Shown here in pieces: positions 41,699 through 45,481 of a stretch of DNA of 64,000 nt. Position numbers and translations under genes: made by a program. Source of the DNA: Escherichia coli. Lineage in GTDB: Bacteria > Pseudomonadota > Gammaproteobacteria > Enterobacterales > Enterobacteriaceae. Within the stretch, counting starts at the first letter, position 1. Each line of letters begins with the position of its first letter. Under the pieces are notes generated by a model. The model saw nothing but the letters and a program-made list of their open reading frames with translations. It made no database searches and was not told where the DNA came from. The stretch lies in assembly GCF_041248615.1 (NCBI RefSeq), contig NZ_CP158426.1; one strand, given 5' to 3'.

Positions 41699-43048
41699 TT
41701 ATTTTTCCTGAAGACCGAGTTTTTTCTCCAGATAGTGGATATTAGTACCACCATGCTGGAAGTTCTCGTCATTCATGATGCGGATCTGCAGATCAACGTT
41801 GGTTTTGATACCGTCGATGATCAGCTCCTGCAGCGCATTCTTCATGCGGGCAATCGCCACGTCACGGTTTTCACCGTAGCAAATCAGCTTACCGATCATT
41901 GAGTCATAGTACGGCGGTACGGTGTAGCCCGCGTAGATATGAGACTCCCAACGTACGCCAAAACCGCCAGGTGCGTGGAAACGGGTGATTTTGCCCGGAC
42001 TTGGCAGGAAGGTGTTCGGATCTTCGGCGTTGATACGACATTCCACCGCATGGCCGCGAACGTGAACTTCTTCTTGCTTGATCGACAGCGGTTGACCGGC
42101 AGCGATACGCAGCTGTTCTTTGATCAGGTCAACGCCGGTGATCATTTCGGTAACCGGATGTTCTACCTGAATACGGGTGTTCATTTCGATGAAATAGAAC
42201 TCGCCGTTTTCGAACAGGAACTCGAAAGTACCTGCACCGCGATAGCCGATATCAACACACGCTTTAGCGCAACGTTCGCCGATGTAGCGACGCAGTTCCG
42301 GGGTAATGCCCGGTGCTGGTGCTTCTTCGACCACTTTCTGGTGGCGGCGCTGCATGGAGCAGTCACGTTCCGCCAGATAGATAGCGTTGCCCTGACCGTC
42401 AGCCAGTACCTGAATCTCGACGTGGCGAGGATTTTCCAGGTATTTCTCCATGTAAACCATATCGTTGCTGAAAGCAGCTTTCGCTTCCGCACGGGTCATG
42501 GAGATGGATTGTGCCAGTTCAGCGTCGCCGCGCACTACGCGCATACCGCGACCGCCGCCGCCGCCGGAGGCTTTGATAATCACCGGATAACCAATGCGTT
42601 TAGCAATGGCGCGGTTTTTATCCATATCGTCGCCCAGCGGGCCGTCAGAACCCGGTACGCAAGGAACGCCTGCTTTTTTCATCGCCGCGATTGCGGATAC
42701 TTTGTCGCCCATCAGGCGAATGGTTTCTGCTTTCGGGCCGATGAAGATAAAGCCGGAGCGCTCAACCTGCTCGGCAAAGTTGGCGTTCTCGGAGAGGAAG
42801 CCGTAACCCGGATGGATTGCTACTGCGCCGGTGATTTCAGCGGCGCTGATGATTGCCGGGATGTTCAGATAACTTTTTACTGACGGAGCAGGGCCGATAC
42901 AGACCGTTTCATCTGCCAGTAATACGTGTTTTAGATCGCGATCCGCGCTGGAGTGTACAGCGACAGTCTTGATGCCCAGTTCTTTACAGGCACGAAGAAT
43001 ACGCAATGCAATCTCGCCGCGGTTGGCAATAACAATTTTATCCAGCAT
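41699..43048 (-). CDS. accC: biotin carboxylase subunit of acetyl-CoA carboxylase
   Basis: 449 aa from [28 protein letters not shown]...; ATP-grasp; the 13 extra N-terminal residues in the ORF track are upstream read-through. Confidence 0.97.
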
Positions 43049-43058
43049 GTTCGCCTCG

Positions 43059-43529
43059 TTACTCGATGACGACCAGCGGCTCGTCAAATTCTACCGGTTG
43101 TCCACTTTCGACCAGAATTGCTTTCACGGTACCGGATTTGTCCGCTTCGATCTGGTTCATCATTTTCATGGCTTCAACGATGCACAGGGTATCGCCCACG
43201 TTGACTTTCTGACCCACTTCGATGAACGCTTTTGCGTCCGGGCTTGGGGTGCGGTAGAAAGTACCAACCATCGGGGAACGTACGATGTGACCACTGATTT
43301 CCGCTGCTGCTGGCGCTTCCATGGAAGGAACGGTCGCCGGAGCGGCTGCGTTAGATTGAGCTGGCTGCTGCATCATTGGTGCAGCGTAAGCTTGTTGCAT
43401 CACAGGGAAACTTGCGGCAGGAGCTGCACGGCTAATGCGTACTGACTCTTCGCCTTCAGAAATTTCCAGTTCGGAGATGCCTGATTCTTCAACCAGCTCG
43501 ATCAGTTTTTTAATCTTACGAATATCCAT
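43059..43529 (-). CDS. accB: biotin carboxyl carrier protein
   Basis: 156 aa, Ala/Pro-rich linker and biotinylation motif [10 protein letters not shown]. Confidence 0.97.
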
Positions 43530-44506
43530 GAGTGGGTTCCGTACTCTTTGTTTAGTGTGATTGTGACAGGCGTTTCACCGCCGTCTGTAAAGCGTATGCC
43601 CCGACAGCTGTATGCATAGCGATAAATTCCAGCAGGCCGGGACGCCGGTCTATTTTGCCCCAGAGTGTCAATGTTAGACTTGACGGACATTGTGCAGCGA
43701 TCTGCTGCTATCCTCCGGCAAAAAACAAAATATACCTTCGTTGCGCCAATGTCACCTTTTCCGCAGCGCAAAAACTGCGTCAGGGAGGACGAGGTCGCAC
43801 ATTATAACGATTTCGTAGCAATTGGCAGCTAAATACTGGTCTTATCAGGGAAGATAATCAACAGCTAACATGTAAATAACCTTCAACACCGTGTAATTTG
43901 CAACAAGCCGCACAATTCACGAAATTAGCGCCATCATCGACGGAACTTCTTATAACGTAAGGTGAAAAGCTGTAAAGCCAGCCCTGCGAAGATGAGGGGC
44001 TGCAATGAGATAATCTTCACAGACCACAAATAATGTAGGGATGCCAGGATCGCGACAAGATAGACGACATTACGCAGCGGTTGCTGAGGATTACGCAATT
44101 TTCACTTCATCGTCTGGATAGATGTGAATGCTAAAGCACGCAAAATCAACCGTCTGACAATGCTCAGCATCAAATACGTTCGAGTGGTTAATTTGTAGGC
44201 AAATAAAATCAGATTATTCACCCCATGGTACCAGAAATCAGTAACAGGTTAAGCGTAGCGTCGCCCAGGCAAAGCACCATAAACCTAACAGGCGACGGAG
44301 GCGTATCAATAATGGCTGTTTAGTGGAGTAACAGTGCGCATCAATTTATGGTCAGTCGAAATCATGACTTTCCAGTTTGGATGATGTTGTACAACTTCAT
44401 GACCAAGATGTTCGACGAAAGCTGTCCGGCTAACCGCTTTTCCTGTTAACCGATTGAATAATGATTTCAAAATGAGTTCCCTCTCTTATTAATCCTTGCT
44501 AAATGG

Positions 44507-45481
44507 TTAGTTAACCTTCACCAGCGTGCGACCCTGGATCTGGTTATTAATGATGGCCTCGGCAAACTTCGGTGCCTCTGCCAGAGATATCTCTTTTGCC
44601 GCCTGGGTATAGAATGATTCCGGTAAATCGGCGACCAGTCGCTGCCAGGCTTGTGCGCGGCGTGCTGGTGGCGTCATCACTGAATCCACCCCCTGTAAAC
44701 GGACATTACGCAGAATAAATGGCATGACCGTGGTTGGCAGAGTAAAACCACCCGCCAGACCACAGGCCGCCACGCAGCCGCCGTAATTCATTTGCGCCAG
44801 CACTTTTGCAAGCACTTTGTCGCCAACGGTGTCAATTGCCCCAGCCCAGACTTGTTTTTCCAGAGGACGGGATTCGGCAAACTCATCGCGAGGGAGAATA
44901 CGGCTGGCTCCTAAACTTTTCAGATATTCATGGGTACTTTCGCGACCAGAAACGGCAACGACCTGATAACCCAACTTATGCAGCAGCGCCACGGCGGTAC
45001 TGCCGACGCCACCACTGGCACCCGTCACGACAATCTCCCCATCCTGCGGGCGAACACCGGCATCTTCCAGTGCCATCACACACAGCATGGCGGTAAAACC
45101 GGCAGTACCGATAATCATTGCTTTACGCGCGTCCAGCCCTTGCGGCATGGCAACCAGCCAGTCACCTTTCACTCGCGCCTGCTCCGCCAGCCCACCCCAG
45201 TGGTTTTCACCAACGCCCCAGCCAGTGAGTAATACGTCCTGACCGGCATGAAAACGCGGAGCTTCGCTGGTGCGTACAGTTCCGGCAAAATCGATCCCAG
45301 GAATCATCGGAAAATTACGGATGATTTTTCCCTTACCGGTAATCGCCAGCGCATCTTTGTAGTTCAGGCTCGACCAGTGAACATCAACCGTGACATCGCC
45401 CTCCGGCAGGCAACTTTCGTCCAGAGTCTGTACCGATGCGAGAGTTTTGCCGTCCTGCTGTTCTAAAAGTAACGCCTGCAT
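44507..45481 (-). CDS. acuI: acrylyl-CoA reductase / quinone oxidoreductase (MDR family)
   Basis: 324 aa, MQALLLEQQDGKTLASVQTLDE..., NADPH-binding VTGASGGVGS; yhdH position. Confidence 0.92.
   Translation of the reverse strand: MQALLLEQQDGKTLASVQTLDESCLPEGDVTVDVHWSSLNYKDALAITGKGKIIRNFPMIPGIDFAGTVRTSEAPRFHAGQDVLLTGWGVGENHWGGLAEQARVKGDWLVAMPQGLDARKAMIIGTAGFTAMLCVMALEDAGVRPQDGEIVVTGASGGVGSTAVALLHKLGYQVVAVSGRESTHEYLKSLGASRILPRDEFAESRPLEKQVWAGAIDTVGDKVLAKVLAQMNYGGCVAACGLAGGFTLPTTVMPFILRNVRLQGVDSVMTPPARRAQAWQRLVADLPESFYTQAAKEISLAEAPKFAEAIINNQIQGRTLVKVN

Follow-up and report, generated by a model that had tools for sequence, protein, structure and literature searches.

The acuI and accB genes of Escherichia coli are separated by a gap of unusual length, and the locus raises the question of what fills it. 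The region was analysed within a 64,000-nucleotide stretch of contig NZ_CP158426.1 (assembly GCF_041248615.1), hereafter the window, to which all coordinates refer. Both genes are read from the minus strand: acuI (44507-45481) encodes 324 aa, accB (43059-43529) encodes 156 aa, and the 977 nt in between (43530-44506) host no intact gene. A first-pass annotation of the window had described here a non-coding tract of about 1 kb with no convincing ORF on either strand. Its limits proved exact, and the lack of coding capacity was borne out, as the longest ORF that overlaps the gap (89 aa; minus strand, 43502-43771) enters accB out of frame and all the others measure 55 aa or less. The absence of a long ORF from 977 nt is per se unremarkable; the unusual feature is the length of the gap. 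The GC content of the tract is 0.41-0.48, versus 0.50-0.62 in the flanking genes. Among 5426 complete E. coli genomes, 5425 carry the tract. A repeat search of the tract revealed a 14-nt palindrome only, and neither REP nor IS-like repeats.

Most of the tract had been regarded in the first-pass annotation as having no assigned function. This agrees with the RefSeq annotation of a 100%-identical strain, which reports zero features in the interval, but it does not hold for about 540 nt, which correspond to two pseudogenes, yrdF and yrdE, present in the K-12 record. K-12 yrdF (b4697) and yrdE (b4646) occupy the same site between acuI (yhdH) and accB, and the two strains are 97.2% identical across the 977 nt, with no gaps. 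There is no substantive difference between them, the RefSeq record of the window strain merely being devoid of the pseudogene annotation. Both yrdF and yrdE are given as pseudogenes in a 2020 paper. The tract is in this respect ordinary, and for the most part already annotated, being made of annotated pseudogenes and a known promoter region. It is very probably a mosaic, in which dead genes are joined to one live control region, the accBC promoter and leader.

The pseudogene closer to acuI, denoted yrdF' (44328-44470, minus strand), is a 5' fragment of a DUF1444-family gene. It features a TTG start and about 48 codons, its residual ORF of 54 aa being closed by a stop at 44306, and sits at the position equivalent to that of K-12 yrdF. 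E. albertii carries an intact 271-aa ORF sharing the yrdF' N-terminus, and a 276-aa DUF1444 protein (WP_000838294.1) is annotated in E. coli HCM-27C-1. Matches of the family to the Pfam DUF1444 and NCBIfam PRK13668 profiles are weak, and the full-length protein itself scores 18 bits against Pfam DUF1444, below the cutoff of 23.8. In the window the full-length ORF (about 271-276 aa) is reduced to its first 48 codons or so, after which the sequence diverges. Internal DNA of the DUF1444-family gene was found in 669 of the 5426 E. coli genomes, in which the gene is intact, and over its first 179 nt the tract shares 96.6-98.3% identity with these long alleles. In 12% of E. coli genomes the site is occupied by the other allele, which lacks part of yrdE'. 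Since short and long alleles each retain sequence missing from the other, the deletion history must be more complex than a single event.

The second pseudogene, yrdE' (43934-44327, minus strand), is a remnant of msrQ (yedZ) corresponding to codons 69-195, and lies where b4646 is annotated in K-12. A YedZ pseudogene is called at this place by PGAP also in ST131 and in strain A22. With K-12 MsrQ as tblastn query (E = 5e-32 overall), residues 69-95 are aligned at 89% identity (44241-44321) and residues 101-193 at 65% identity (43946-44224). An uninterrupted MsrQ frame of about 200 codons is not found, because the N-terminal 68 codons are missing, one frameshift falls between residues 95 and 101 (near 44225-44240), and one in-frame stop is located near 44099-44101. 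The stitched translation covers positions 69-193 of the 212 of the NCBIfam MsrQ equivalog NF003831 at 81.9 bits (E = 4.5e-23; cutoff 130), and reaches 13.9 bits against Pfam Ferric_reduct PF01794, the cutoff of which is 28. At the sequence level homology to MsrQ is clear, but yrdE' is not a full member of the family. The MsrQ motifs ATLHLTSY and QQLHNFVY read in yrdE' ATLRLTCY and QPLRNVVY, respectively; His91 and His151 are changed to Arg, and His164 is retained. All three are conserved histidines that serve as haem ligands, and as judged from these changes and from the lesions the remnant cannot encode a working haem-binding subunit. The partner gene msrP is missing upstream, as no similarity to MsrP was detected in the tract by tblastn (best E = 4). 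The DNA of yrdE' is 77% identical to the functional K-12 msrQ, versus 68-70% to the syntenic Citrobacter msrQ. A 101-nt msrQ patch, found in the short allele only, was considered as a product of recent gene conversion; the idea was dropped, since its identity of 82% is not exceptional for yrdE', the remainder of which spans 68-85%.

The origin of these remnants is illustrated by the organization of the site in related species. In about 45 other Enterobacterales loci, ranging from Citrobacter to Yersinia and including Budvicia (Salmonella was absent from the comparative set), genes follow the order csrD, acuI, msrP, msrQ, (aroQ), accB. An intact msrP-msrQ (yedYZ) pair resides at this site in about 45 genera, and yrdE' aligns to codons 69-195 of MsrQ. 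The E. coli tract differs in that msrP and the first 68 msrQ codons are not present, and the functional E. coli copy adjoins hiuH. K-12 MsrP and MsrQ match the syntenic Citrobacter proteins at 83-90%, the same level found for AcuI and CsrD, which fits a relocation of the gene pair within the lineage.

The part of the tract closer to accB has a different ancestry. In 69 of 80 loci an intact aroQ gene immediately precedes accB, at a median distance of 31 nt; the Enterobacter ORF, for example, matches Pfam DHquinase_II (PF01220) at E = 5.8e-60. In the window, the AroQ domain of about 140 residues is represented by 15 C-terminal codons and by the start-codon region alone. The 3' remnant (43552-43599, minus strand) includes the last 15 codons and the TAA stop, and in tblastn with Enterobacter AroQ 14 of the 15 residues are identical (E = 3e-6). 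Alignment to genera with intact aroQ resolves the accBC leader, taken from the predicted start P1 described below (43530-43794, minus strand), into the ancestral aroQ 5' UTR, the aroQ start codon (43688-43690), a scrambled and deleted aroQ, the aroQ 3' end, and the aroQ-accB spacer. The latter (43530-43551, minus strand) contains the accB ribosome-binding region AACAAAGAGTACGGAACCCACTC, of which GAGTACGGAAYC is nearly invariant across Enterobacterales. About 315 nt of aroQ are absent from the Escherichia leader, and the promoter core is separated from accB by 292 nt in Escherichia versus about 605-620 nt in loci with an intact aroQ. Compared to the aroQ-accB-accC operon of other Gammaproteobacteria, promoter block, 5' UTR, spacer between aroQ stop and accB, and ribosome-binding region are the same; the difference is that E. 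coli keeps the aroQ start region and the last 15 codons, with the deletion in between, and that the former gene is now untranslated leader.

The E. coli accBC leader is on these grounds best described as a decayed aroQ, a relic and not a gene, the assignment being based on 15 recognisable codons and on their context. The relic is not included in the K-12 annotation, and no reading of the leader as an aroQ relic was found in the searchable literature. In E. coli aroQ is redundant, since the species relies on the type I dehydroquinase AroD. As in the published accBC system, the distance from promoter to accB is unusually great, and the leader known as "unusually long" is explained as what is left of aroQ, by which accB is preceded in most Gammaproteobacteria.

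The presence within the tract of the accBC promoter and of a long leader, already noticed in the first-pass annotation, is supported. The interval from about 43530 to 43930 is nearly invariant within E. coli. A 68-bp upstream block (43795-43862, minus strand; consensus GTTGATWATCTTCCCTGATAAGACCAGTATTTAGCTGCCAAWTGCTACGAAATCGTTATAATG) varies at 7 of 68 columns in a ten-genus alignment, and 46 of 51 sequences contain its 22-nt core, at 0-5 mismatches. The block has a nucleotide diversity (pi) of 0 among five E. coli strains and diverges by 2.4% from E. albertii. Two promoter-like elements were singled out by consensus scans. The first, P1 (43801-43828, minus strand), consists of CTGCCA and TATAAT hexamers set 16 nt apart (10/12 consensus positions), and has a predicted start near 43794, corresponding to a leader of about 265 nt; its -10 hexamer is kept in 46 of 46 sequences. 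The second, P2 (43727-43755, minus strand), consists of GTGACA and TATTTT hexamers set 17 nt apart (9/12), and has a predicted start near 43720. The pattern NTGACN-17 nt-TANNNT, with a spacing of exactly 17 nt and a variable spacer sequence, is shared by 45 of 46 Enterobacterales sequences. Hexamers, spacing of 16-18 nt and conservation in relatives, all features of sigma-70 promoters, are found in both, and P1 and P2 are two tandem sigma-70-like elements maintained from E. coli to Yersinia. The published accBC promoter is reportedly located "about 300 bp" upstream, a distance which neither predicted start fits exactly; accB is unmentioned in the SMRT-Cappable-seq supplements.

An imperfect palindrome, CTGATAAGACCAGTATT (43832-43848, minus strand), is invariant in the ten-genus alignment and is a candidate FadR activator site. 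Its centre precedes the predicted P1 start by about 45 nt. The palindrome was compared to the fabA-type arrangement, in which a 17-bp FadR palindrome is placed just upstream of the -35 hexamer, and agrees at 10 of 14 positions with the fabA FadR site CTGATCGGACTTGTT, as derived from a probe sequence (PMC4537474). FadR has been reported as promoting accBC expression. According to reviews, the accBC operon is growth-rate regulated, it is repressed by the AccB N-terminus, and FadR is said to promote its expression.

The two parts of the tract evolve differently. The values of pi are 0.035 for yrdF' and 0.044 for yrdE', versus 0.043 for acuI third codon positions. Because diversity matches that of acuI third positions, this portion (about 540 nt, the upstream 60% or so of the tract) evolves neutrally. 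Across promoter and leader (400 nt) pi is 0-0.004, versus 0.019 at accB third positions, and this downstream portion (about 40% of the tract) is strongly conserved. Conservation had been indicated in the first-pass annotation as a check on the tract, and it turned out not to be uniformly low, parts of the promoter and of the leader being kept as far as Yersinia. Hitch-hiking with the slowly evolving accB could be a partial cause of the low diversity of the leader; at third positions E. coli and E. albertii diverge by 3.9% in accB and by 25% in acuI.

We infer the following order of events. The ancestral Enterobacterales layout would have been acuI, msrP, msrQ, promoter, aroQ, accB, accC. In Escherichia, a copy of msrPQ may have been established beside hiuH, after which a DUF1444-family gene would have taken the place of msrP and of the first third of msrQ. 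In most E. coli another deletion would then have removed most of the DUF1444-family gene, and a deletion of about 315 nt would have destroyed aroQ. Transcription of yrdF' and yrdE' is expected to be weak, and probably due to read-through from acuI. The ancestral promoter region of aroQ-accBC, with the 68-bp block, the FadR-like palindrome, P1 and P2, remains under strong constraint, and the leader that is left (roughly 190-265 nt) is made up of the aroQ 5' UTR and start codon and of the last 15 aroQ codons. RNA polymerase would initiate at P1 and/or P2, probably aided by FadR, and proceed across the leader relic into accBC. The terminal 65 nt or so of the leader, with a hairpin and the accB ribosome-binding region, may have been kept because needed in cis for accB expression.

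This terminal segment may do more than support translation. As a possible, though doubtful, alternative, the last 65 nt or so would be a post-transcriptional control element, involved in the processing or stabilisation of accBC mRNA and perhaps in the action of AccB or OmrA. In Escherichia, Citrobacter, Superficieibacter and Phytobacter, in which aroQ is dead, sequences upstream of about -66 are scrambled, and those downstream are near-identical to the ones found in genera with intact aroQ; conservation of the ribosome-binding region and of the adjacent sequence is however explicable by translation efficiency alone. The segment includes a hairpin, GACGGCG-GUGAAA-CGCCUGUC (43565-43585, minus strand), formed by 7 bp with one bulge. 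Among 50 distinct sequences 92% of the cells are paired. Covariation, confounded by phylogeny and, in most species, by the aroQ coding constraint, is limited to a single pair, which is G-C in 25, A-U in 14 and unpaired in 9. The hairpin is nearly unchanged in the four aroQ-dead lineages.

A Term-seq 3' end mapped in K-12 at 3405373 (43592 in the window, 63 nt before the accB ATG) lies at the 5' border of the 65-nt block. It is classified neither as a Rho-dependent (0.93) nor as an intrinsic terminator (2.1, below the threshold of 3), as expected of a cleavage product; the signal is weak, about 1000 reads versus the 10^4 to 10^6 recorded at many sites. A terminator scan found zero terminator-like sites in the tract, and, with the 3' end at -63 scoring as above, no intrinsic terminator or attenuator was recognized in the leader. 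AccB represses its own operon and is devoid of a DNA-binding motif, but this autoregulation has been reported to be transcriptional. Overproduction of OmrA lowers accBC mRNA, according to the literature. The specific version in which 3' end, hairpin and ribosome-binding region form a cis element setting the fate of accBC mRNA, as a processing site followed by a protective 5' hairpin and possibly targeted by AccB feedback or by OmrA, seems unlikely. If true, accBC would have recruited its regulatory leader from the remains of a dead gene. A control element of this kind is compatible with the mosaic organization of the tract, and would be additional to it. A comparison of the independent aroQ losses points to roughly 65 nt of leader, and to the 68-bp block at the promoter, as the parts that are needed, and specific sequences to mutate become available to those investigating AccB autoregulation, FadR or OmrA.

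Expression of the residual ORFs as functional small proteins is improbable. Three ORFs come into consideration, namely those of the 54-aa YrdF' peptide, a 54-aa MsrQ C-terminal fragment with two hydrophobic helices (43934-44098), and a 62-codon ORF starting at the old aroQ ATG (43502-43690, minus strand) and ending out of frame within accB. The yrdF' start codon and a good Shine-Dalgarno sequence are retained, 36 nt past acuI, and the MsrQ-derived ORF is hydrophobic; yet yrdF' and yrdE' are as diverse as synonymous positions, and the alternative allele of 12% of E. coli genomes is missing part of yrdE'. The 62-codon ORF is shared by E. coli and E. albertii, and in the latter it stays open thanks to two compensating 1-nt indels. 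The old aroQ Shine-Dalgarno GGAG has changed to GCAG in Escherichia, and is mutated in three independent aroQ-dead lineages; the equivalent ORF ends in Citrobacter after 9 codons. Because of the mutated Shine-Dalgarno and of the Citrobacter truncation, its role as a translated uORF is unlikely, and meaningful translation of the ORF is improbable. The K-12 annotation includes none of the three as a protein.

That the tract encodes an unannotated small RNA, as surmised in the first-pass annotation, or a riboswitch-like structured element, is highly improbable, as no Rfam family reaches its gathering score, no consensus structure is formed, published Term-seq data for the interval are limited to two weak 3' ends on the sense strand, terminator-like sites are missing, K-12 has no ncRNA annotated here, and the pseudogene part is neutral. 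A known RNA family was rejected also at a permissive E-value, the scan of 43000-45000 returning sub-threshold matches to Ysr190, ssnA and a snoRNA only. In many Enterobacteriaceae the P1 start is followed by a small stem-loop, the sequence of which varies, but no consensus pairs were obtained by RNAalifold for the first 100 nt of the leader in 45 species, and the whole leader folds no better than shuffled sequences (z = -1.26). A universal hairpin between P1 and P2 was similarly discarded, the median of per-sequence hairpin z values in this segment being -0.96, with 14 of 44 below -1.5. The best Rfam match, to Ysr190 (RF02764; 43727-43826, minus strand), is weak (25.3 bits, E = 0.39; gathering score 66). 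The model begins upstream of the -10 box; what it covers is not a gene standing by itself, but the promoter and the first 75 nt or so of the leader. Its long hairpin, as modelled for Yersinia, lacks conservation in Enterobacteriaceae. The match nonetheless marks homologous DNA, from the P1 -10 box through those first 75 nt, and at the homologous Yersinia and Serratia loci Ysr190 scores above threshold (77-131 bits).

The acuI (45481-44507) and accB (43529-43059) genes are both on the minus strand, and the end of the former and the start of the latter delimit a gap of exactly 977 nt (43530-44506); csrD lies beyond acuI, in divergent orientation. The first-pass annotation had described about 1 kb without convincing ORF between accB and acuI, and inspection of the ORFs in the gap indeed found no intact gene. 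The longest ORF (89 aa) enters accB out of frame, the rest do not exceed 55 aa, and GC content drops from 0.50-0.62 in the genes on either side to 0.41-0.48 in the gap. The tract is present in 5425 of 5426 complete E. coli genomes, and the interval 43400-44650 is 100% identical to NZ_LT599825.1. Its components are known kinds of thing, most of them already annotated. The earlier view that most of the tract lacks assigned function does not hold, since the K-12 pseudogenes yrdF and yrdE are annotated in the upstream 60%. Tract positions (t) correspond to 44507 minus the window position, in the direction from acuI to accB.

K-12 and window tracts are 97.2% identical, without gaps. The remnant yrdF', equivalent to yrdF (b4697, K-12 RefSeq pseudogene annotation), spans 44470-44328 on the minus strand and is recognizable by homology as the 5' start of a DUF1444-family gene. 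An intact 271-aa E. albertii ORF has the same N-terminus, and a 276-aa DUF1444 domain-containing protein is annotated in E. coli HCM-27C-1. Internal DNA of the gene (L084:1212-2042; L numbers denote loci from other genomes, in their own numbering) is found in 669 of the 5426 genomes, and also in E. albertii. At the acuI-accB site the gene is a presence/absence polymorphism, the remaining genomes carrying the truncated yrdF' allele. This short allele, found in the window, K-12 and most strains, shares t1-179 and t281-977 with the long allele, which hosts the full gene; between the common parts are 101 nt (msrQ codons 69-96) in the short allele, and 856 nt in the long one. Each allele retains parts lost from the other; separate deletions therefore gave rise to the two from one ancestral form.

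The adjoining remnant yrdE' (equivalent to yrdE, b4646, in the same K-12 annotation; 44327-43934, minus strand) is, on the alignments, what is left of msrQ. In tblastn with K-12 MsrQ as query (E = 5e-32), MsrQ residues 69-95 (89%) and 101-193 (65%) are matched in different frames, with one in-frame stop. Against the NCBIfam MsrQ equivalog, a stitched translation scores 81.9 bits (E = 4.5e-23), below the 130-bit cutoff, and two of the three conserved MsrQ histidines (His91, His151) are changed to Arg. PGAP calls a YedZ pseudogene over the same stretch in both ST131 and strain A22. No trace of MsrP was found in the tract; functional E. coli msrPQ adjoins hiuH. Among 80 loci sampled from other species with AccB as anchor, about 45 feature the order csrD (divergent)-acuI-msrP-msrQ-accB, and these span Citrobacter, Enterobacter, Kluyvera, Erwinia, Serratia, Yersinia, Hafnia and Budvicia. 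At the DNA level yrdE' is 77% identical to functional E. coli msrQ, against 66-70% to syntenic Citrobacter and Enterobacter msrQ. The similarity of K-12 MsrP and MsrQ to the Citrobacter proteins is 83-90%, and AcuI and CsrD are about equally similar. In the simplest reading, a duplication or relocation of msrPQ would have occurred in the Escherichia lineage, after which the copy left at the original site would have decayed.

Other arrangements were noted in the sample. In about ten genera acuI is missing between csrD and msrP (L007, L010, L017, L018, L023, L028, L031, L037, L046, L048). Photorhabdus and Xenorhabdus (L030, L033, L039, L045) are devoid of msrPQ, the aroQ-accBC promoter coming immediately after acuI. 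The variable presence of acuI and msrPQ therefore marks the neighbourhood as fluid across Enterobacterales. Candidatus Pantoea persica has two accB loci in one genome (L075, L051); csrD, msrP and msrQ are decaying in one, as judged by split tblastn matches, and the second lacks aroQ upstream.

The first-pass annotation had correctly placed the accBC promoter and leader in the tract. Two tandem sigma-70-like elements are predicted on the minus strand, P1 (43828-43801; CTGCCA, 16 nt, TATAAT) and P2 (43755-43727; GTGACA, 17 nt, TATTTT). The upstream block GTTGATWATCTTCCCTGATAAGACCAGTATTTAGCTGCCAAWTGCTACGAAATCGTTATAATG (43862-43795) varies at only 7 of 68 columns in ten aligned genera, and the variable columns fall outside both the TATAAT hexamer and a FadR-like palindrome, CTGATAAGACCAGTATT (43848-43832), located just upstream of the weak P1 -35 hexamer. 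The palindrome resembles the fabA FadR site CTGATCGGACTTGTT, taken from a probe sequence (PMC4537474), and is a candidate FadR site; FadR is said to promote accBC expression. P2 is kept in 45 of 46 sequences with a spacing of exactly 17 nt and a variable spacer sequence, the signature expected of a promoter.

The 22-nt promoter core TTGCTACGAAATCGTTATAATG (43821-43800) shows 0-5 mismatches in 46 sequences. Its distance from accB is 288-292 nt in Escherichia and Citrobacter, and about 605-620 nt in most other genera, where the extra length is an intact aroQ gene (type II dehydroquinase, 150 aa; Pfam E = 5.8e-60). aroQ is found directly upstream of accB, at a median gap of 31 nt, in 69 of the 80 loci, including Vibrio, Aeromonas and Pasteurellaceae. 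Aligned to genera with intact aroQ, the E. coli leader retains the aroQ 5' UTR and the ATG (43690-43688), after which a few codons survive in decayed form. About 315 nt are then missing and the sequence is scrambled; the 3' end of the gene is kept as the last 15 codons and stop (43599-43552; 14 of 15 residues identical), together with the 22-nt spacer that follows and contains the accB ribosome-binding region. On this alignment, the E. coli accBC leader is itself a dead aroQ gene. The relic is absent from the K-12 annotation, and a literature search found no paper connecting aroQ with the E. coli accB leader; this reading of the long leader is a small addition, as is the definition of a conserved 3' block of about 65 nt. 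Gilliamella and Schmidhempelia have likewise lost aroQ, and so have Citrobacter, Superficieibacter and Phytobacter, where the deletion patterns differ. The loci with aroQ loss upstream of accB (L005, L006, L054, L012, L023, L057, L058, L063) belong to several separate lineages, and the enterobacterial ones all retain the final 55 nt or so of aroQ almost unaltered. A 62-codon ORF (43502-43690, minus strand; L004:5840-6028 in E. albertii) runs from the old aroQ ATG to an end inside accB. Two 1-nt indels that compensate each other leave it open in E. albertii. However, the ORF has a mutated Shine-Dalgarno sequence, and in Citrobacter it ends after 9 codons.

Diversity (pi) was computed for a set of five E. 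coli, and divergence by comparing the window with E. albertii. Conservation, a check proposed in the first-pass annotation, is not uniformly low but bimodal: the segment values point to neutral-rate pseudogene drift and to a constrained promoter and leader (t574-977, pi 0-0.004). Pi and divergence are 0.043 and 0.25 at acuI third positions, 0.035 and 0.034 in yrdF', and 0.044 and 0.18 in yrdE'. They are 0 and 0.024 in the 68-bp promoter block, 0.004 and 0.11 in the 5' part of the leader, 0 and 0.024 in the aroQ debris, 0 and 0.014 in the last 72 nt, and 0.019 and 0.039 at accB third positions. Linkage to the slowly evolving accB may be the source of part of the low diversity. Between E. coli and E. 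albertii the difference is 3.4% in the yrdF' segment (44328-44506; L004:4272-4451), against 25% at the adjacent acuI third positions, which suggests a recent exchange of the segment between the two species; at accB third positions the similarity is likewise unusually high (3.9% difference).

The last 65 nt or so before accB are near-identical across all Enterobacteriaceae, aroQ-dead lineages included. A hairpin at 43585-43565 is 92% paired over 50 sequences, with one covarying pair; this is modest and confounded evidence. In Term-seq tables (Adams et al. 2021, PMC7815308), the mreB-dusB interval has only two weak 3' ends on the minus strand. One (K-12 3404827, window 44138, minus strand; 789 reads) is within yrdE'. 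The other (K-12 3405373, window 43592, minus strand; 1014 reads) is 63 nt upstream of the accB ATG, with a Rho score of 0.93 ('No') and an intrinsic-terminator score of 2.1. The latter falls exactly on the 5' boundary of the invariant leader block and, being scored neither Rho-dependent nor intrinsic, may speculatively be a processing site.

An unannotated small RNA, entertained earlier, finds no support, as neither Term-seq end is sRNA-like and the Rfam family Ysr190 ('Yersinia sRNA 190') scores 25 bits in E. coli, against a threshold of 66. Ysr190 is above threshold at the homologous promoter/leader place in Yersinia and Serratia (L038:5380-5481, L060:5380-5481, L040:5238-5339, L025:5379-5480), and covers the -10 box of the aroQ-accBC promoter and the first 75 nt or so of the leader. 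The model starts upstream of the P1 -10 box, and therefore corresponds to promoter plus leader start; Ysr190 probably represents part of a leader and not an sRNA gene in its own right.

Beyond the observed homologies, synteny, neutral pseudogene drift and promoter/leader constraint, FadR would assist initiation at P1 and/or P2, and transcripts would extend across the relic leader to accBC. The 3' block would be retained because needed for accB translation or mRNA stability, and yrdF' and yrdE' would be functionless, transcribed by read-through only. Overproduction of OmrA, and not of OmrB, is reported to lower accBC mRNA (window 43059-43800; 2026 preprint); the OmrA pairing site on this mRNA could lie in the leader.
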